64,000 nt of DNA from Escherichia coli (GTDB lineage: Bacteria > Pseudomonadota > Gammaproteobacteria > Enterobacterales > Enterobacteriaceae): NCBI RefSeq assembly GCF_013315695.1, contig NZ_CP054353.1; one strand, written 5' to 3'. Position numbers and translations under genes: made by a program. The notes beneath the pieces were generated by a model. That model searched no databases. It was given only the letters and a program-made list of their open reading frames with translations, and was not told the DNA's origin. Each line of letters starts with the position of its first letter. Within the stretch, counting starts at the first letter, position 1. Below, one piece after another: positions 4,515 through 33,564 of the stretch.

Positions 4515-5624
4515 TCACTTGGCTGCCGTGGATGAACCGTCGGCGTGCCACTGGAAGACACCAAAATCAAATCCCTTAAGATCGCCTTTTTCATCCCAGT
4601 TCAGCGGCCCAATTACGGTGTTTGCACCGTTAGCTTTTAAATCTTTCACCAGCGCCAGCGGCTCATCGCTGCCGGTACGCTCAAGTGCAGTCGCCAGAGA
4701 TTGCACCGCCGCGTAAGTGATCCAGACATATGGCCCGGACGGATCTTTCTTGTCTGCTTTCAGCGCATCAACGATGTCCTGATTTGCCGGATCCTGGTCA
4801 TAGCGTTTTGGCATAGTGACCAACATGCCTTCGGCAGCATCGCCAGCAATATTCGACAACGACGCATTACCCACACCTTCCGGCCCCATAAACTGGGTTT
4901 TCAGGCCAACGGAACGGGCCTGGCGCAGCATCTGCCCCATTTCCGGGTAGTAACCGCCGTAGTAAACGAAGTCGATGTTTTCTTTTTTCAGGCGGGCGAT
5001 CAGCGCGGAGAAATCTTTCTCTCCAGCGGTAATGCCGTCGAAGAAGACGACGTTGGCGTTAGCCGCTTTCAGCCCGTCCTGCACCGAACGTGCCAGTCCT
5101 TCGCCATACTGTTGTTTGTCGTGAATGATGGCGATGCGCTGGGGCTTCACCGTCTCAAGAATGTATTTTGCCGCCGTTGGCCCCTGGGAAGAGTCCAGCC
5201 CGGCAGTACGCATGATGTATTGATAACCGCGTTGGGTCAGCTCCGGATTGGTCGCTCCCGGCGAGATCATCAGAATACCTTCGTCTTCATAGATATCTGA
5301 TGCAGGTTGGGTAGAGGAGGAACACAGATGACCAATAACATATTTAATGCCGTCGTTAACGATTTTGTTGGCGACCGCAACGGCTTGTTTCGGGTCGCAG
5401 GCGTCGTCATATTCCACGCCAACCAGTTTATCGCCCTTAATTCCCCCTTTGGCATTAATGTCTTTAATTGCCTGACGCGCGCCGTTAAATTCCATATCGC
5501 CCCACTGGGCAATCGGGCCGGACATCGCGCCGACAACGGCGACTTTAATATCGTCAGCCATAGCGGTGTGTGAAATTGTCAGTGCAATCATCCCTGCGAT
5601 GATAGTTTTCGCATTCCGTTTCAT
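4515..5624 (-). CDS. livK: Leucine-specific periplasmic binding protein LivK
   Basis: ORF 4515..5678; start moved to [15 protein letters not shown] (signal peptide). Paralogue of livJ. Confidence 0.9.
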
Positions 5625-6047
5625 AGTCAAAAATCCCCATTCGTGATGTTGTGTTGCTTTGTTTTTATGTGTTAACAAATCAGACTGTTCTTTTTTTATA
5701 CTGCACTGTTTTTACCTGTCTGATTAAGGGTTTAGCGCAGTACTTTGTGATGATAGCGATTAAAACCCCTATTTTTCAGTCGATTAATAACAGATAATAT
5801 TCTGAATTTATTGATAGATAAACAGAAAAAAGCGCCGTTGTCAGCATAAAATAACGGTACAAAGGGCAGAATAATTCACTACCATTTAGGGGATTATGCT
5901 GGATATTTTTCATTCTCTAATGTTTTAACTTTGTAATTATTGCTGAAAAAAAATTAATCACCTGCCAAAAGAAATAAAAAAGAGAAAGCCTCCGATTAAA
6001 TTATTTCGCTACACTGGTTCCACTTTTGTGATTTACACGGGTTCCCC

Positions 6048-7722: not shown

Positions 7723-7940
7723 CCTGAGAATCCCCACTCTTCTGGTTATTACGTGTGTTGTGATGTTGTTGTGCAGCACTTTATTTCGTTTTATACGTAG
7801 CCACCCGTGCTTTAGCAGCATACTCTGCTAAAACATACCCCATTTTTATGATATTGGAATAGCTATTTTGACAGTTTATTAACAATCTGCGTGGGGATTG
7901 GCGTTTTGCCGGAGGGGGAAACTGATTATTGTAGAGGCCC

Positions 7941-7972
7941 AAAAAACAAAAACCCCGGACTCTCATCCAGGG
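7941..7972 (-). terminator. Rho-independent terminator of rpoH
   Basis: Hairpin ccccgga / tccaggg followed on minus strand by TTTTTGTTTTTT. Confidence 0.6.
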
Positions 7973-7993
7973 TTCTCTGCTTAATAGCGGAAA

Positions 7994-8848
7994 TTACGCT
8001 TCAATGGCAGCGCGCAATTTTTTCATCGCGTTCTTTTCCAGCTGACGCACACGCTCAGCGGAAACACCGTAACGGTCAGCCAGTTCCTGCAACGTGGACT
8101 TGTTGTCTTCGTCCAGCCAGCGCGCGCGGATGATATCCTGGCTACGCTCGTCCAGACCTTGCATCGCGTCGGTCAGACGGTTTGCCGCCTGCTCTTCCCA
8201 GTTATCATCTTCGATGCCGTCAGCAAAGTTAGATGATTTATCCTGCAGATAGAGCACCGGAGCCATCGGCTGGCTGTCGGAATCGTCATCGGAAGACAGG
8301 TCAAAGGTCATGTCCTGTGCCGCCATACGCGATTCCATCTCACGTACGTCTTTGCTGGTTACGCCCAGTTCACGGGCCACCATTTCGACTTCATCCTGAT
8401 TAAACCAGCCCAGACGCTGCTTGGTTTTACGCAGGTTGAAGAACAGTTTGCGCTGCGCTTTGGTGGTCGCAACTTTGACGATACGCCAGTTGCGCAGAAC
8501 GTATTCGTGGATCTCTGCTTTGATCCAGTGAACGGCGAAGGAGACCAGGCGCACACCCACTTCCGGGTTAAAACGGCGCACTGCTTTCATCAGGCCGATG
8601 TTACCTTCCTGAATCAAATCCGCCTGTGGCAGGCCATAGCCCGCATAATTACGAGCAATATGAACAACAAACCGCAGGTGAGACAGGATCAGCGTTTTAG
8701 CTGCTTCCAGATCGCCATGGTAATGCAGCTTTTCAGCCAGCGCCCGCTCCTCGTCAGCCGACAACATCGGCCACGCGTTAGCTGCCCGGATGTAGGAATC
8801 CAGGTTGCCAACTGGGGCTAAAGCTAAACTTTGCATTTTGTCAGTCAT
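7994..8848 (-). CDS. rpoH: RNA polymerase sigma-32 (heat-shock sigma factor)
   Basis: 284 aa, [43 protein letters not shown]... Confidence 0.96.
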
Positions 8849-8941
8849 TCAAATCCTCTCAATCGATATCTTCTGGCGCTTCAGTGGTAGCAACAACTGT
8901 GCCAGAGCTTAAGAGCAACGAGGTTATCATTCACTGTTTTA

Positions 8942-8968
8942 TCAGACAGTGATTTTATCCACAAGTTC
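8942..8968 (-). promoter_or_regulatory. Sigma-E-type promoter upstream of rpoH (GAACTT-N16-TCTGA)
   Basis: On minus strand GAACTT (8968..8963), 16-nt spacer, TCTGA (8946..8942); matches the sigma-E consensus and the known rpoH P3 arrangement. Confidence 0.6.
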
Positions 8969-9092
8969 AATGCAACGCTGTGAATAAATTACGCACAAAA
9001 TGTGACATAGAGATGAAATACCGGGAAGAGACAACGGGGTCTCTTTCCCTGCTACGGAACCCATTGCAGGGAAAGAGTATAACACGCTTTTA

Positions 9093-10151
9093 TTATTCAG
9101 GCGTAAAGTGGCGTAAATGTTGTACCGTGGCAAGCCACGCTGCCACCCAGCCAATCATCGAGCATACCAGCAGCAATAGCAGGCATTCATCGAACGATAA
9201 GCCATTGATATCAAACTTTGTTCCGAAAACCTGTGCCACTTCCGCAACCGCCGATGACAAACGCAGTACCAGAATTTCTGACAAAATTAGTGACAACAAT
9301 GCGCCAGAAAATCCCAGCAGTGCGCCACCGTACAGGAACGGGCGCAGGATGAAACCATCCGTCGCACCAATCAGTTTCTGCACGTTAATGGAGTCACGGC
9401 GAGCAAAGATACTCAGGCGCACACTGTTACCGATGACGAGGAACACTGCCGCCACCATCAACACGCCGATCATCGCGGAAACGCGCCCGACCAGCCCGGT
9501 TAACGCCGCCAGACGGGCAAACCAGCTGTCATCCATCCGCACTTCGTCAATGCCGTTGATCTGGGTGATACGATCACGCAGCGTATTCAGTGATTCCGTC
9601 CCCTGAAAATCGAGTTTCGGGATCACCACCGCCACTGCCGGAAGCGGGTTTTCTTCCAGCATATCCAGCGCACCACCAAAACCAGACCAGTTACGGAACT
9701 CGCCCAGTGCGTCTTCACGAGAAAGATAATTCACTTTCTCCACGCCTTGCTCAGCCTGCAACTGTGCCACCACGCCCGCAGCGGCGTCATCATCCAGCGT
9801 TTTTTGCAGATAAACAGTGATTTGCGGTGACGGATAATATTGCGTCGCCGCCTGGTTAACGTTTTTGTACACCATATAACAGACGCTGGGCAGCGTCAGG
9901 GAGATGGCGATAACCATCACCGTTAAAAACGTGGCGAACGGTTTGCTTTTCAGATCTTGCAATGCGCCGTGGAAGGCATAGCGCACCTGTTCGTTGAAAA
10001 CGTTGGTTTTGCGATTTACCGGTTTTGGCGAGGATTTCGCACGTTTCGGCGCGTTACGACCGCCGTCGCCAGAGCCGCCGACCGATTTACGGAAGCGATC
10101 CAGACGCCCGCCAAACTGCCGAATATGATTGATTGCATCGCGCTTATTCAT
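9093..10151 (-). CDS. ftsX: Cell division ABC transporter permease-like protein FtsX
   Basis: ORF 9093..10178; start trimmed to [15 protein letters not shown] (352 aa). Confidence 0.93.
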
Positions 10152-24274: not shown

Positions 24275-27078
<2,804 letters not shown>

Positions 27079-27227
27079 CACCTACCCACGCGCCGTTATT
27101 TCCTGACGGCGCAGTAAATTCCTGCCAAATATCGACTCACGTCACATTTTTTTGATCACGATTTGGTCCCTCAAAATGTGAGACGCTTCGATCCTCTTTT
27201 TCTCCCGTTCACCTACTATACGCTTGA

Positions 27228-27255
27228 AGTTGTCCATGATTGTCCATAGACAACT
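27228..27255 (+). promoter_or_regulatory. Candidate operator upstream of island GntR regulator
   Basis: Inverted repeat AGTTGTC-N14-GACAACT with embedded direct repeat TTGTCCAT x2, about 20 bp upstream of regulator start. Confidence 0.35.
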
Positions 27256-27276
27256 GTAAATGTTCAGGTGCGCGCC

Positions 27277-28023
27277 ATGAAATCATTAAGTAAGTCGTCA
27301 CAAATACCGCTCTATCAACAAGTGGTGGAGTGGATAAGAGAAAGTATTTATACCGGGGATCTGGTGGAAGACGATCGCATTCCTTCGGAATACCAGATTA
27401 TGGATATGCTGGAAGTGAGTCGGGGAACCGTTAAAAAAGCGGTCGCCCAACTGGTAAAAGAAGGCGTGTTGATTCAGGTCCAGGGGAAGGGAACTTTTGT
27501 CAAAAAAGAGAACGTGGCATATCCGTTAGGTGAAGGATTATTGTCATTCGCGGAATCGCTGGAAAGCCAGAAAATACATTTTACCACTGAAGTTATTACG
27601 TCACGGATTGAACCGGCTAATCGTTATGTGGCAGAGAAATTAAGAATAACGCCCGGTCAGGATATTCTTTACCTTGAGCGTTTACGTTCAATTGGTGATG
27701 AAAAAGCGATGCTGATAGAGAACCGTATCAATATTGAGCTATGCCCCGGCATCGTGGAAATCGATTTTAATCAACATAATTTATTTCCAACAATAGAAAG
27801 TTTGTCGCAAAGAAAAATTCGTTACTCGGAAAGTCGCTATGCCGCGCGATTAATTGGTAATGAACGCGGTCATTTTTTAGATATCAGTGAAGATGCACCC
27901 GTTTTGCATCTGGAGCAGTTAGTCTTTTTCTCCCGAGAGTTACCCGTTGAGTTTGGCAACGTCTGGTTAAAAGGAAATAAATATTATCTGGGCACCGTGC
28001 TGCAACGGCGGGAAGTGAGTTAA
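27277..28023 (+). CDS. GntR/HutC-family transcriptional regulator (winged HTH + UTRA effector domain)
   Basis: ORF 27268..28023 (GTG); ATG at 27277 with AGGTG SD. HTH region IPSEYQIMDMLEVSRGTVKKAVAQLVKEGVL. Confidence 0.8.
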   Translation: MKSLSKSSQIPLYQQVVEWIRESIYTGDLVEDDRIPSEYQIMDMLEVSRGTVKKAVAQLVKEGVLIQVQGKGTFVKKENVAYPLGEGLLSFAESLESQKIHFTTEVITSRIEPANRYVAEKLRITPGQDILYLERLRSIGDEKAMLIENRINIELCPGIVEIDFNQHNLFPTIESLSQRKIRYSESRYAARLIGNERGHFLDISEDAPVLHLEQLVFFSRELPVEFGNVWLKGNKYYLGTVLQRREVS

Positions 28024-28047
28024 ATACACTTTTTTATGAGGAATAAA

Positions 28048-28521
28048 ATGCAAGGCATACAGTTTCAGGAAAATTATATTCAACGACTTCCGGCAGGGTT
28101 AAGCGTTGAACAGATCATCCGTCAGTTAGCGCAACCGTTGGTTGCTGCTGAGCTGGTGGTCCCTGATTTTGCCAATCACGTACTGAAACGTGAGGCGACG
28201 TACCCAACGGGGCTGCCTACCGAACCACCGTGCGTCGCCATTCCGCACACGGACCATAAACATGTCCGGCACAATGCAATTGCCGTCGGTATTTTGCCAG
28301 AGCCGGTAGAGTTTGCCGATATGGGCGGCGACCCTGATCCCGTACCTGTCAGGGTGATTTTTTTGCTCGCCTTAAGTGAAAGTAATAAACAATTAAATGC
28401 CCTGGGCTGGATTATGGAGATGATTCAGGATACGCCCTTTATGCGCGCCCTGCTTACGATGGAAACAACAGAAATACACACAGTAATCTTAAACAAAATG
28501 AATGAACGAGGTGAAATATGA
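28048..28521 (+). CDS. PTS EIIA component, galactitol (GatA-like) family
   Basis: ORF 28036..28521; ATG 28048 after GAGGA. Phospho-His region CVAIPHTDHKHV resembles GatA AIAIPHCEA. Confidence 0.8.
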   Translation: MQGIQFQENYIQRLPAGLSVEQIIRQLAQPLVAAELVVPDFANHVLKREATYPTGLPTEPPCVAIPHTDHKHVRHNAIAVGILPEPVEFADMGGDPDPVPVRVIFLLALSESNKQLNALGWIMEMIQDTPFMRALLTMETTEIHTVILNKMNERGEI

Positions 28522-28799
28522 GTCAAACCATTTTATTTGTCTGCGCCACAGGTATTGCCACATCCACGGCGGTAACAGAAAAAGTCATGGAGTATTGCAA
28601 AGAGCACGGCCTTAACGTCAATTATTCCCAAACCAACGTTGCCTCTTTACCCGGTAATACCGACGGCGTAGCGCTGGTTGTTTCAACGACTAAAGTGCCT
28701 TATGAACTCGACGTCCCGGTAGTTAACGGCTTGCCGATTATTACCGGTATTGGCGAAGAGAAAGTACTGGCGCAAATTGTTTCGATTCTTAAAAAGTAA
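28518..28799 (+). CDS. PTS EIIB component, galactitol (GatB-like) family
   Basis: 93 aa, ILFVCATGIATST (phospho-Cys loop); 4-bp overlap with EIIA gene. Confidence 0.8.
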   Translation: MSQTILFVCATGIATSTAVTEKVMEYCKEHGLNVNYSQTNVASLPGNTDGVALVVSTTKVPYELDVPVVNGLPIITGIGEEKVLAQIVSILKK

Positions 28800-28872
28800 T
28801 TAATAATTAATTCCAACCCACTCCATCAGGCGCTAACGCGAGGTGCGCTCTCGCCTGAAAAAGAGGTTTATT

Positions 28873-30231
28873 ATGAACGATATCGCGCATACCCTCTATA
28901 ATATTGTGCAATATATATTGGGATTTGGCCCCACGGTAATGTTGCCGTTGGTGTTATTTATTCTTGCTCTCTGTTTTAAAGTAAAACCCGCTAAAGCCTT
29001 ACGCTCGTCATTAACAGTCGGCATTGGTTTTGTCGGTATTTATGCCATTTTCGATATTCTTACCAGCAATGTCGGGCCAGCGGCCCAGGCGATGGTTGAA
29101 CGCACCGGAATTAATTTACCGGTGGTGGATTTAGGCTGGCCGCCGCTTTCCGCTATTACATGGGGTTCGCCAATTGCCCCGTTTGTTATTCCCCTGACCA
29201 TTCTGATTAATGTCGCAATGCTGGCGTTAAATAAAACCCGCACCGTTGATGTAGATATGTGGAACTACTGGCATTTTGCCCTTGCCGGTACGCTGGTTTA
29301 TTACAGCACCGGCAGCCTATTCTTTGGTTTGCTGGCGGCCGCGATTGCCGCAGTGGTGGTGCTAAAACTCGCCGACTGGTCTGCGCCACTGGTACAAAAA
29401 TACTTTGGCCTGGAAGGGATCTCATTGCCGACGCTCTCTTCGGTGGTGTTCTTCCCGGTCGGTCTGCTGGTCGACAAAATCATCGACCATATCCCTGGCC
29501 TCAATCGTATTCATATCGACCCGGAAACCGTACAGAAAAAGTTTGGCATCTTCGGCGAACCGATGATGGTTGGCACTATTCTGGGCATTCTGCTCGGCGT
29601 AATTGCCGGATACGATTTCAAAAAAGTCTTGCTGCTTGGCATCAGCATTGGCGGTGTGATGTTCATCCTGCCACGCATGGTTCGCATCCTGATGGAAGGT
29701 TTATTACCGCTGTCTGAAGCCATTAAAAAGTATCTCAATGCCAAATACCCTGACCGTGACGATCTCTATATAGGACTGGATATCGCCGTTGCCGTAGGTA
29801 ACCCGGCGATTATCTCCACCGCCCTGCTGCTGACGCCAATCTCGGTCTTTATCGCGTTTGTCCTCCCAGGTAATGAAGTCCTGCCGCTTGGCGACCTTGC
29901 CAACCTGGCGGTAATGGCGTCGATGATTGCTTTAGCCAGCCGTGGCAATATTTTCCGCACCGTTCTGGCGGCGATCCCGGTGATTATTGCCGACCTGTGG
30001 ATTGCCACTAAAATCGCGCCGTTTATTACCGGAATGGCGAAAGACGTTAACTTCAAATTTGCCGAAGGCTCCAGCGGCCAGGTTTCCAGTTTCCTTGATG
30101 GCGGTAACCCGTTCCGCTTCTGGCTGCTGGAAATCTTCAACGGCAATCTCATCGCCATTGGTCTGGTGCCGGTTATCGCCCTGATACTGTATGGCATTTT
30201 CCGAATGACGCGGAGCACGGTTTATGCCTGA
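28873..30231 (+). CDS. PTS EIIC permease, galactitol (GatC-like) family
   Basis: ORF 28843..30231; ATG 28873 after AAGAGG. Polytopic; strong resemblance to GatC (GPTVMLP..., GEPMMVGTILG, FGDLANL). Confidence 0.82.
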   Translation: MNDIAHTLYNIVQYILGFGPTVMLPLVLFILALCFKVKPAKALRSSLTVGIGFVGIYAIFDILTSNVGPAAQAMVERTGINLPVVDLGWPPLSAITWGSPIAPFVIPLTILINVAMLALNKTRTVDVDMWNYWHFALAGTLVYYSTGSLFFGLLAAAIAAVVVLKLADWSAPLVQKYFGLEGISLPTLSSVVFFPVGLLVDKIIDHIPGLNRIHIDPETVQKKFGIFGEPMMVGTILGILLGVIAGYDFKKVLLLGISIGGVMFILPRMVRILMEGLLPLSEAIKKYLNAKYPDRDDLYIGLDIAVAVGNPAIISTALLLTPISVFIAFVLPGNEVLPLGDLANLAVMASMIALASRGNIFRTVLAAIPVIIADLWIATKIAPFITGMAKDVNFKFAEGSSGQVSSFLDGGNPFRFWLLEIFNGNLIAIGLVPVIALILYGIFRMTRSTVYA

Positions 30232-31732
30232 TAACAGCGCAGCTATCGTTATCGATATTGGCACCACCAATTGCAAAGTCACCTGCTTTTCCTGCCTGGA
30301 TGCAACGACGTTGGGCGCGCATAAATTCGTGACGGCAAAACAGATCTCCCCACAGGGCGATGTCGATTTCGATATCGACGTCCTCTGGCAGGAGGTCCGC
30401 CAGGCAATAGCGCAACTGAGCGCCGCTTCGCCGCTGCCGGTCAGGCGGATAAGCATTGCCAGTTTTGGCGAGTCAGGGGTGTTTCTTGACGAGCATGGCG
30501 AGATCCTGACGCCAATGCTGGCATGGTATGACCGCCGCGGTGAAGAGTACCTGGCAACGCTTAGTGAGGCAGACAGTGCGGCGCTTTATGACATCTGCGG
30601 GCTACCGCTGCACAGCAATTACTCTGCCTTCAAAATGCGTTGGTTGCTGGAGCATTATCCACTGCGTAATCGCCGCGGCCTGCGTTGGCTACATGCGCCG
30701 GAAGTACTGCTCTGGCGGCTGACTGGCGAACAGCGTACGGATATCACCTTAGCCAGCCGTACGCTGTGTCTGGACGTGCGTAAAGGCGAATGGTCAGCGA
30801 AAGCGGCGGCGTTGTTACACGTTCCCTGTTCAGCATTTGCGCCATTGGTGCAGCCAGGCGAGCACGCCGGATGGGTCAGCGAGTCGCTCTGCAAAACGCT
30901 TGGGTTCTTGCAACCGGTCAGCGTGACGCTGGCCGGGCATGACCATATGGTGGGTGCGCGGGCGTTGCAGATGACGCCGGGCGATATCCTTAACTCGACG
31001 GGCACCACAGAAGGCATTCTGCAACTGGATACACAACCGACGCTGGATGAACAGGCCAAACGTGACAAGCTGGCAAACGGCTGTTATTCGCTTGCAAACC
31101 AGTTCACCCTGTTTGCGTCGCTGCCGGTGGGCGGTTTCGCTCTGGAGTGGCTGCGCAACACGTTCCGGCTAACCGATGAGGAGATCGCCGCATCACTTAC
31201 TCGCGGACATGCGGATTACCTGGCGGGGAACTGGTCGCTCGATGACATTCCCGTTTTTATTCCGCATCTTCGCGGTTCGGGTTCGCCCTATAAAAATCGC
31301 CATACCCGAGGATTATTTTATGGGCTTGGCGATACGTTAAATATCGATATGTTAATTGCCAGCGTCTCACTGGGATTAACCATGGAATTTGCCAACTGCT
31401 TCGCCTGTTTTAATGTGCCCGGCACCAGCGCGTTAAAAGTGATAGGTCCGGCAACCCATAATCCCCTTTGGCTGCAATTAAAGGCGGATATTTTACAGCG
31501 TCCGGTTGAAGCAATTGCATTTAACGAGGCGGTTTCTGTCGGAGCATTATTAACCGCCGCACCGGATATTCCACCGCCGCAAGTCACCATAGCCCAACGT
31601 TTGTTACCGAATCGGGCGAGATACCATCAATTACAGCGTTATCAGCACAAATGGAAAAGCTGGTATCAGTTGAAATTACAGCAAGAAGGCGTGATGCCAT
31701 TACATCATCGGGAGGAGCACTATGTTGAGTAA
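30224..31732 (+). CDS. FGGY-family carbohydrate kinase
   Basis: 502 aa; N-terminal AAIVIDIGTTNCKV ATPase motif; 8-bp overlap with EIIC gene. Confidence 0.75.
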   Translation: MPDNSAAIVIDIGTTNCKVTCFSCLDATTLGAHKFVTAKQISPQGDVDFDIDVLWQEVRQAIAQLSAASPLPVRRISIASFGESGVFLDEHGEILTPMLAWYDRRGEEYLATLSEADSAALYDICGLPLHSNYSAFKMRWLLEHYPLRNRRGLRWLHAPEVLLWRLTGEQRTDITLASRTLCLDVRKGEWSAKAAALLHVPCSAFAPLVQPGEHAGWVSESLCKTLGFLQPVSVTLAGHDHMVGARALQMTPGDILNSTGTTEGILQLDTQPTLDEQAKRDKLANGCYSLANQFTLFASLPVGGFALEWLRNTFRLTDEEIAASLTRGHADYLAGNWSLDDIPVFIPHLRGSGSPYKNRHTRGLFYGLGDTLNIDMLIASVSLGLTMEFANCFACFNVPGTSALKVIGPATHNPLWLQLKADILQRPVEAIAFNEAVSVGALLTAAPDIPPPQVTIAQRLLPNRARYHQLQRYQHKWKSWYQLKLQQEGVMPLHHREEHYVE

Positions 31733-31991
31733 AACCGTGGAGGTCAGAAACAGTACTGGCCTGCATGCACGTCCGGCGGCCTGTCTGGCGAAAGCCGCCA
31801 AAAAATATAGCTGTAAAGTGACGCTGCATTATGAAGGTAATGATATTAATGCCACCAGCATGATGAATATTATGCGCGCCGGAATAAAAGGCGGAAAAAC
31901 GGTGGAAATACGCTGCGAAGGTGATGATGAAAACGAGGCAATACAAACTCTCACTACCTTATTTCGCGACCGCTTCGGTGAAGCTGAATAA
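31722..31991 (+). CDS. HPr-like phosphocarrier protein (island-encoded paralogue)
   Basis: 89 aa; active-site GLHARPAA (His-15 equivalent); overlaps kinase gene. Confidence 0.8.
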   Translation: MLSKTVEVRNSTGLHARPAACLAKAAKKYSCKVTLHYEGNDINATSMMNIMRAGIKGGKTVEIRCEGDDENEAIQTLTTLFRDRFGEAE

Positions 31992-32022: not shown

Positions 32023-32883
32023 ATGCCATTAGTTAATGGACGGATACTGCTCGACCGCATTCAGGAAAAACGGGTATTAGCGGGCGCATTTAATACCACC
32101 AATCTGGAGACAACGATTTCAATTTTAAACGCCATTGAGCGTTCAGGATTACCCAACTTCATTCAGATTGCGCCCACCAATGCACAACTGTCGGGATACG
32201 ATTACATTTATGAAATCGTGAAACGTCACGCTGATAAAATGGATGTTCCGGTCAGTCTTCATCTTGATCACGGGAAAACTCAGGAGGATGTTAAACAGGC
32301 GGTGCGCGCGGGCTTTACCTCGGTCATGATTGACGGTGCCGCATTCTCTTTTGAAGAGAATATCGCTTTCACCCAGGAAGCTGTCGATTTCTGTAAATCC
32401 TATGGCGTACCGGTTGAAGCGGAGCTGGGGGCGATTCTCGGCAAAGAAGACGATCACGTCAGCGAAGCCGATTGCAAAACGGAACCGGAAAAGGTGAAGA
32501 CCTTTGTCGAACGCACCGGTTGCGACATGCTGGCAGTTTCTATTGGTAACGTTCATGGCCTGGACGATATACCGCGGATCGATATCCCCCTGCTGAAGCG
32601 CATTGCCGAAGTCAGCCCGGTGCCGCTGGTTATTCACGGCGGCTCCGGTATCGCCCCGGAGATATTACGCAGTTTCGTTAATTATCGCGTCGCTAAAGTG
32701 AATATCGCCAGCGATCTGCGCAAAGCGTTTATCACCGCAGTCGGCAAAGCCTATGTGAATAATCACAACGAGGCGAATCTGGCACGAGTGATGGCATCAG
32801 CAAAAAACGCCGTCGAGGAAGATGTGTATAGCAAAATCCTGATGATGAATGAGGGGCATCGGTTGATTAGAAAGGCATCTTAA
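32023..32883 (+). CDS. Class II ketose-bisphosphate aldolase (GatY/KbaY/FbaA family)
   Basis: 286 aa; LHLDHG, VEAELG, HGGSG motifs of class II FBA family. Confidence 0.82.
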   Translation: MPLVNGRILLDRIQEKRVLAGAFNTTNLETTISILNAIERSGLPNFIQIAPTNAQLSGYDYIYEIVKRHADKMDVPVSLHLDHGKTQEDVKQAVRAGFTSVMIDGAAFSFEENIAFTQEAVDFCKSYGVPVEAELGAILGKEDDHVSEADCKTEPEKVKTFVERTGCDMLAVSIGNVHGLDDIPRIDIPLLKRIAEVSPVPLVIHGGSGIAPEILRSFVNYRVAKVNIASDLRKAFITAVGKAYVNNHNEANLARVMASAKNAVEEDVYSKILMMNEGHRLIRKAS

Positions 32884-32895
32884 GAGCCACAAAAA

Positions 32896-32930
32896 TATAG
32901 CGGCGCAACAGAAATTGTTGGGCCGCTATA
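32896..32930. terminator. Bidirectional terminator hairpin between aldolase and HicB-like gene
   Basis: tatagcggcgcaac / gttgggccgctata stem; T-run follows on minus strand (TATATTTTTG). Confidence 0.55.
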
Positions 32931-32932
32931 AG

Positions 32933-33292
32933 TTATAAATGATTCAAACGCTCATTTAGCGTTTCAATAATATAAGTATTTACAGAGACTTGTTGCTGCG
33001 CAGCCGCATTATTAAGGCGTTCACTCAGCGATTCTGGATAGCGTAATGTAAAGGTCTTAATCTTTTCTGTACGCGCATACGGCTCAATACCCGCAGCTTT
33101 ACAATCCTCAAGATACTCTCGCAGGGAAAGCTCCCCTTCTTTTTGCAGCCCCTGAATGCTGTCAGAGACAAAATCACAATAACCTGACAAGCCCAGGAAT
33201 TTGCCACGAAATGCATTCAGTTCTGGCACGTAAGTGATAACAGCAGGTTGCCCGGCAATCTCCATAGAGTTTGGCGTCTTCAGTTTGATCAT
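32933..33292 (-). CDS. HicB-family antitoxin-like protein (C-terminal ribbon-helix-helix)
   Basis: 119 aa; C-terminal SERLNNAAAQQQVSVNTYIIETLNERL looks like an RHH DNA-binding motif; 4-bp overlap with upstream small gene. Confidence 0.6.
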   Translation of the reverse strand: MIKLKTPNSMEIAGQPAVITYVPELNAFRGKFLGLSGYCDFVSDSIQGLQKEGELSLREYLEDCKAAGIEPYARTEKIKTFTLRYPESLSERLNNAAAQQQVSVNTYIIETLNERLNHL

Positions 33293-33564
33293 GGTTTTAC
33301 CCCTATACTTAGTAACCAGTCACGCACGCTTTCTACAGCGCCTTTATCGGTATCTGGCGACGGATGAGGCCGATGGAAACACGCAACGCTCATATTTAGT
33401 ATGAACTTACAACGCGAACCTCTTCCTTCCTTAATTTCTCCGCCTAATGCTTTAACCAGTGACTCTATATCAGACCACTTAATCCCTTGAGGAACAGGAG
33501 ATTTAAATATTTGATCCAATGTATTTTTTTGTTTCTTCCGTAAAGCCTGTACCAGGGTTCTCAT
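33289..33564 (-). CDS. HicA-family toxin-like protein (putative mRNA interferase)
   Basis: 91 aa; GSRCKFIL...HRPHP...DTDKGAVESVRDWL resembles the HicA pattern; upstream partner of the HicB-like gene. Confidence 0.55.
   Translation of the reverse strand: MRTLVQALRKKQKNTLDQIFKSPVPQGIKWSDIESLVKALGGEIKEGRGSRCKFILNMSVACFHRPHPSPDTDKGAVESVRDWLLSIGVKP

Follow-up and report, generated by a model that had tools for sequence, protein, structure and literature searches.

Within the 64,000-nucleotide stretch of Escherichia coli DNA analysed here (the window), nikABCDE–nikR is followed by an accessory segment that runs from a regulator gene to an aldolase gene, and then by hicBA and yhhJ. The genes of the accessory segment form an operon on the plus strand and are followed by a hairpin:

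27277–28023, plus strand: GntR/HutC-subfamily regulator of 248 amino acids, with Pfam GntR and UTRA domains
28036–28521, plus strand: PTS EIIA, operon gene
28518–28799, plus strand: PTS IIB, operon gene
28843–30231, plus strand: PTS IIC of the Gat family, operon gene
30224–31732, plus strand: FGGY kinase, operon gene
31722–31991, plus strand: HPr, operon gene
32023–32883, plus strand: class II ketose-bisphosphate aldolase (NCBIfam NF005943), last gene of the operon
32897–32929, no strand assigned: hairpin TATAGCGGC...GCCGCTATA, past the aldolase gene and between the convergent aldolase and hicB genes

The hairpin is likely to mark the end of the operon and is probably a bidirectional terminator. 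The hicBA toxin–antitoxin pair lies beyond it at the right end of the island (32933–33564, minus strand). The longest open reading frame for EIIC starts with the GTG at 28843 and the RefSeq start lies 30 bp downstream (28873), giving an IIB–IIC gap of 43 or 73 bp.

The regulator consists of an N-terminal GntR winged-helix domain (PF00392, E = 4e-16) and a C-terminal UTRA effector domain with the chorismate-lyase fold (PF07702, E = 1e-26), both scoring above the curated cut-offs, and was therefore placed in the HutC subfamily. Its relatives in the PDB are NagR, DasR and YydK, and a structural-genomics entry titled 'Putative regulator' (3HFI) spans regulator residues 79–248 (E = 8e-109).

About 1,635 of 5,426 complete E. 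coli genomes (about 30%) carry the island; the carriers include O157:H7, O145:H28, ST131, APEC O2:K1 and IAI39-like strains. In genomes without it (K-12 and HS), homology stops at around 27076, the nikR stop codon, so the entire intergenic region upstream of the regulator belongs to the island. A hairpin with no T-run (GCGCCGT-N9-ACGGCGC, 27090–27112) and a 16-nt direct repeat (GCGCCGTTATTTCCTG/GCGCAGTAAATTCCTG, in the 27076–27112 region) are also on the island side. We found no literature on the operon or on the motif described below, including binding, expression or transcription-start data for the locus.

An earlier note on this DNA had placed a candidate operator in what it called the island's only non-coding stretch of any size, and the gene map agrees: the gap before the regulator is 198 bp (27079–27276), compared with 12, 43, 31 and 49 bp elsewhere in the cluster, and is thus the only room for a promoter. 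The suggestion that one site could provide both autoregulation and operon control is supported as well, because the regulator gene opens a tightly packed operon and a single upstream site can serve both. The features of this stretch are as follows:

27131–27146, no strand assigned: CRP-like site 2, ATCGActcacgTCACA, matching 7/10 in E. coli and lying 46 bp upstream of site 1
27177–27192, no strand assigned: CRP-like site 1, TGTGAgacgctTCGAT, matching 7 of 10 core positions and centred at 27184.5, about −41.5 relative to the predicted start
27214–27219, plus strand: predicted −10 element TACTAT, with TAnnAT columns conserved across genera; 8 bp upstream of the dyad
27228–27255, no strand assigned: predicted composite operator, a 28-bp near-palindrome AGTTGTCCATG-ATTGTC-CATAGACAACT with three TTGTnnAT boxes
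27230–27237, plus strand: box 1, TTGTCCAT, an auxiliary half-site in direct repeat with box 2, which starts 10 bp further downstream
27240–27253, no strand assigned: core 14-bp palindrome TTGTCCATAGACAA, made of boxes 2 and 3 in GT-N6-AC geometry
27240–27247, plus strand: box 2, part of the core palindrome
27246–27253, minus strand: box 3, inverted and overlapping box 2 in the core palindrome
27260–27267, plus strand: speculative fourth box in phase with the others, ATGTTCAG (core TGTTCA); it follows box 2 by 20 bp and overlaps the Shine–Dalgarno sequence
27265–27279, plus strand: Shine–Dalgarno sequence AGGTG (27265–27269) and ATG (27277) of the regulator, identical to the RefSeq start

In the window, positions 27228–27255 read AGTTGTCCATGATTGTCCATAGACAACT. 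The repeats described in the earlier note are present to the letter: the dyad AGTTGTC-N14-GACAACT is exact, with arms at 27228–27234 and 27249–27255 and 14 nt between them, and the embedded tandem has TTGTCCAT at 27230–27237 and again at 27240–27247, 10 nt from start to start. A repeat search extended the dyad to 11-nt arms, AGTTGTCCATG and CATAGACAACT, which are complementary at 10 of 11 positions around a 6-nt spacer. Inside it, the second TTGTCCAT and the right arm together make up the 14-bp near-palindrome TTGTCCATAGACAA at 27240–27253, in which 6 of 7 pairs are symmetric.

Each of these repeat features, taken alone, is unremarkable. The window contains 42 dyads with 11-nt arms, at most one mismatch and a spacer of 0–10 nt, many of them overlapping registers of one hairpin, against about 7.6 expected per 64 kb of Markov-1 random sequence. 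Exact 8-mer repeats at a spacing of 10 occur five times in the window, with 1.3 expected; TTGTCCAT shows no over-representation there (3 matches versus 2.2 expected), and the core palindrome, allowing up to two mismatches, has no second site in the island. The N14 pattern with up to two mismatches is unique in the window, yet at least one such match appeared in 15 of 100 shuffles. These figures are what a chance repeat without function might produce, random sequence yielding both such dyads and such 8-mers at the rates given. We judged the site to be more than chance because it is conserved across loci, not because of window statistics.

Scanning an alignment of regulator homologues against one genome per species gave 51 loci, from Enterobacterales, Gilliamella, Enterococcus and Selenomonadaceae (Selenomonas and Centipeda). 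The regulator adjoins the same PTS, FGGY-kinase and aldolase genes in every full-length locus, and an HPr gene accompanies it wherever tblastn detected one. In group A the regulator is 83–100% identical and the genes form a single operon as in E. coli; in group B it is 66–72% identical and the genes form two units, PTS–kinase–dehydrogenase and regulator–aldolase–HPr. A distant set with 54–59% identity comprises Gilliamella, Enterococcus, Selenomonas and Centipeda.

The earlier note had named a lack of conservation in homologous islands as evidence against its proposal; we found that 50 of the 51 loci, across phyla, have TTGTnCAT-type boxes in a 10- or 20-bp register immediately before the regulator gene. 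The one exception (L021) has no site at the regulator gene and a site at the PTS promoter only. The group A site, AAGTTGTACATGATTGTCyATAGACAACT, is fixed at −47 from the ATG, and the group B site reads AACTTGTkCATAsTyGTAyAyAGAyGATCT. Gilliamella has boxes at −63, −53, −43 and −33, the avium-group Enterococcus loci have them at −96, −86, −66, −46 and −26, and the Selenomonas site is AAGATGTACATAGTTGTATATAGACAAG. Proteobacterial sites follow the order direct, direct, inverted, with the last two boxes overlapping as the 14-bp palindrome, and the Enterococcus and Gilliamella operators are pure arrays of same-orientation boxes. All lineages share the 10-bp register, and in the distant set these boxes are the only tight clusters of near-consensus boxes in a 10/20-bp register.

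Comparison of 28 distinct sites showed no variation at columns T5, G6 and A10 in box 1, T14, G16, T17 and A20 in box 2, and G23 and A24 in the inverted box 3, which defines the unit as TTGTnnAT. Box 1 is the most variable, reading TTGTCCAT in Escherichia and Citrobacter, TTGTACAT in the rest of group A and TTGAACAT at group B PTS promoters; only the first two genera have the exact 8-mer tandem, which makes it lineage-specific. When 17 distinct group A enterobacterial upstream regions were aligned, 71% of the operator columns were invariant and the mean top-base frequency there was 0.96, compared with 0.53–0.63 for the spacers and 0.46 for the distal intergenic region, making the operator the best-conserved non-coding block among these sequences. 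Among 13 Escherichia sequences (94–100% identity range), the operator and the −10 element are invariant and all SNPs fall in 27079–27206, with none in 27207–27270.

The 21-nt leader between operator and ATG (27256–27276) is itself almost invariant across genera (0.88–0.96), beyond what the Shine–Dalgarno sequence needs. The candidate fourth box ATGTTCAG within it is nearly invariant in group A and is not present in group B leaders.

These comparative data already contradict the chance reading. The site has been kept while the distal flanks were randomised, the motif recurs at nearly all loci and across phyla, and an independent second copy occurs at another promoter (see below), leaving a functionless repeat with almost no probability. 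The randomised flanks also speak against recent transfer of one DNA segment.

A −10 element at 27214–27219 would put the transcription start near 27226 and the operator at about +3 to +30. A strict sigma-70 consensus scan and a terminator scan of 26950–27400 called nothing, so the −10 element and the start were placed by conservation only; over the whole island, promoter and terminator match counts equalled those of shuffles. In Enterococcus and Selenomonas the boxes begin a few bases after near-consensus −35/−10 pairs, as judged by eye.

The two CRP-like sites differ in how they are kept. At site 1, group A conserves an AAAnTGTGA half and does not keep the other half, and the equivalent positions in group B reach 9/10. 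The position of site 2 scores 9–10/10 in 14 of the 16 other group A loci and 7/10 in E. coli and Citrobacter. The E. coli sites, at 7/10, are at chance level: the CRP core pattern with up to three mismatches has 153 matches in the window against 208 expected. Measured upstream from box 1, CRP-like sites lie at 45.5 and 91.5 bp in group A, at 43.5–46.5 bp at group B regulator promoters (none was found in L031), at 62.5–65.5 bp at group B PTS promoters and, with a 10/10 match, at 25.5 bp in Gilliamella. These distances would fit −41.5 or −61.5 given a transcription start 2–4 bp before box 1.

The constant 46-bp spacing would put the two sites at about −41.5 and −87.5, the latter not a canonical CRP position. 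Between them, at 27153–27157, a TGATC containing a Dam GATC site is kept in 15 of 17 group A sequences and, with the TCACA upstream of it, reads TCACA-N6-TGATC. An alternative promoter with CAAAAT as its −10 element, driven by the upstream CRP-like site, was rejected by hand on spacing (about −45.5).

With a start near 27226 the dyad would stand at the 5′ end of the transcript, where it could act as RNA, as a stem–loop that stabilizes the mRNA or modulates translation, instead of as protein-binding DNA. The predicted fold of 27226–27290 (−16.1 kcal/mol, z = −2.4 versus shuffles) includes a second hairpin over the Shine–Dalgarno sequence and start codon, and the 5′ untranslated region is unusually conserved in group A. 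That conservation follows sequence (TTGT..AT), however, and not pairing. In the outer 11-bp stem, paired cells amount to 68.8% (shuffles 69.6%) and the covariation score to 0.165 (shuffles 0.168), which rules out this stem as a selected hairpin; only 6 of 11 stem positions pair in the one group B site inspected by hand, the same-orientation boxes of Enterococcus and Gilliamella cannot form a stem, and Rfam gave no match. An RNA element is thus very unlikely, and the E. coli leader fold is probably a by-product of operator symmetry. The N14 dyad of the earlier note exists, but the conserved unit is a different one: a single box plus the 14-bp palindrome with GT-N6-AC geometry, its outer stem showing no covariation.

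We built a position weight matrix (PWM) from regulator-upstream sites only. It had a single match in the window, at 27227 with 40.2 bits, and nothing else there reached 10 bits. In group B, it identified a second site of 24.8–37 bits upstream of the separate PTS operon, for example AGGTTGAACATAGTTGTACATAGACAACCA; in L023 this site lies about 70–100 bp before the EIIA start. Over about 0.6 Mb of loci nothing else exceeded 14.7 bits, apart from shifted re-scorings of the same sites. A motif found at both promoters of a split regulon, and travelling with the regulator across phyla, is best explained as the operator of that regulator.

Some GntR-family proteins activate, and both the binding protein and the transcription start are predicted ones, so that another protein might bind here or the adjacent regulator might act as an activator. 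We consider this improbable. The phyla in which the motif accompanies the regulator gene have few other regulators in common, the motif marks both promoters of the split regulon, and the site bears the GT/AC signature of the family (PMC4494728). By eye, it is unlike the consensus sites of CRP, Cra, NagC/Mlc or cre. Finally, a site just downstream of the −10 element, with CRP-like sites upstream, has the geometry of repression.

The split-operon loci of group B, such as that of Raoultella planticola (L023), have two Zn-dependent dehydrogenases alongside (in L023 at 4777–5811 and 7936–9114). These enzymes suggest a polyol substrate there, by analogy with galactitol-1-P dehydrogenase, and the E. 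coli version, which has none, suggests a ketose.

The GntR family is known to have GT...AC palindromes, additional half-sites beside them and direct-repeat operators, and a 4-nt GT–AC distance (GTMTAKAC) holds for most HutC sites, with listed exceptions (PMC4494728). The earlier note had appealed to GT-N-AC cores in operators of this family: TTGTCCATAGACAA fits the family palindrome NyGTNxACNy, with GT and AC placed symmetrically and the G and T positions invariant in 28 sites, but the distance is 6 nt (GTCCATAGAC) and not the 4 nt typical of HutC. The motif does not appear in the supplementary tables of the GntR motif catalogue (PMC4494728).

The closest characterized relative with a DNA complex is NagR/YvoA (E = 2.6e-21, PDB comparison), which binds the dre operators of Bacillus subtilis and, like the regulator here, combines a winged helix–turn–helix with a UTRA domain (PMC4333415). 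Its operator, too, is a palindrome of 14 bp centred on A/T, and the PTS-linked sugar operon that follows likewise contains the regulator gene; the inducer of NagR is a sugar phosphate (PMC4333415). NagR reads GTGGTCTAGACCAC, with GT-N4-AC and two G per ideal half-site, whereas the core here is TTGTCCATAGACAA, with GT-N6-AC and one G. In NagR the consecutive G pair of the ideal half-site is read by Arg38 and Arg48 (PMC4333415). The G-reading Arg48 and the wing Gly69 are kept here as Arg49 and Gly70, whereas Arg38, which reads the second G, is replaced by Tyr39, and by Asn in most orthologues. The single-G half-site (TTGT) would agree with this pattern of one arginine kept and one replaced. The NagR site also lacks the extra same-orientation box found here 10 bp upstream.

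Other members of the family resemble the site in its remaining features. FarR/MngR (direct repeats TGTATTAWTT) and NagQ (TGGTATT), both exceptions among HutC operators (PMC4494728), use same-orientation TGT-containing boxes about one helical turn apart. As direct repeats, boxes 1 and 2 are spaced at 10 bp and the Enterococcus arrays at 10/20 bp. Unlike FarR/MngR and NagQ sites, the E. coli site mixes direct and inverted repeats, its last two boxes forming a palindrome, and its box is TTGTnCAT. A palindrome with a weaker adjacent half-site has been described by comparative genomics for four HutC orthologous groups (PMC4494728), and the site here similarly has a strong palindrome with an extra, more variable box on one side. 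The extra boxes of those groups lie 7–12 nt from the site centre, whereas box 1 and the palindrome here are 13 nt apart, centre to centre.

The enzymes of the island recall another system. The galactitol (gat) PTS pathway of E. coli comprises Gat-family EIIA, IIB and IIC components, a class II ketose-bisphosphate aldolase and the DeoR-type regulator GatR. The island shares the Gat-family EIIA, IIB and IIC and the class II ketose-bisphosphate aldolase, and the split loci add Zn-dependent dehydrogenases. It differs in having a GntR/HutC regulator instead of the DeoR-type GatR, an FGGY-family kinase and its own HPr.

From the anatomy of the sequence, its conservation and its co-occurrence with the regulator gene, we infer binding and repression: with a probability of roughly 80%, the neighbouring HutC-subfamily GntR repressor uses the 28-bp element as its auto-regulatory operator, at a CRP-dependent promoter from which a sugar phosphate releases it. 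The operator would begin about 4 bp downstream of the predicted start, at the only promoter region of the regulator–PTS–kinase–HPr–aldolase operon. When sugar is absent, the winged-helix domains would sit on the boxes: one dimer would cover the palindrome, and box 1 would be bound through further contacts or by a second dimer. Regulator bound at about +3 to +30 would block RNA polymerase and so repress the six catabolic genes along with its own. A phosphorylated sugar, either made by the PTS or the product of the kinase, may then bind the UTRA domain and release the repressor, and cAMP–CRP may activate from the upstream CRP-like sites. We propose that, under this dual control by repressor and cAMP–CRP, the operon needs both its inducer and the absence of glucose.

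A bolder interpretation, which we regard as doubtful, is that the site represents a distinct HutC operator architecture. It would consist of arrays of the 8-bp TTGTnCAT box in a strict 10-bp register, mixing direct and inverted copies with GT-N6-AC spacing, and would be occupied by more than one dimer, bound cooperatively or as a tetramer; the ribosome-binding site may be overlain by a fourth box. Under this interpretation the same layout would span lineages from Firmicutes to Enterobacterales, and the sugar pathway under its control, an undescribed one, would combine a Gat-type PTS and a class II aldolase with an FGGY kinase whose substrate is a sugar phosphate.

The mechanism of the auto-regulatory operator that we favour is conventional, an ordinary kind of bacterial switch; the predicted operator has a somewhat unusual geometry. 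It provides a concrete, testable regulatory model for an accessory sugar-utilization island whose pathway, with its Gat-family PTS, FGGY kinase, own HPr and class II ketose-bisphosphate aldolase, is uncharacterized. The operator and its invariant positions are themselves reagents, as a 28-mer, box mutants and a reporter for inducer screening, that could identify the substrate of the pathway, and the 3HFI structure can be used directly for ligand docking or soaking towards the inducer. For the family, the site extends the catalogue of HutC operators by a case of GT-N6-AC spacing with a phased auxiliary box.
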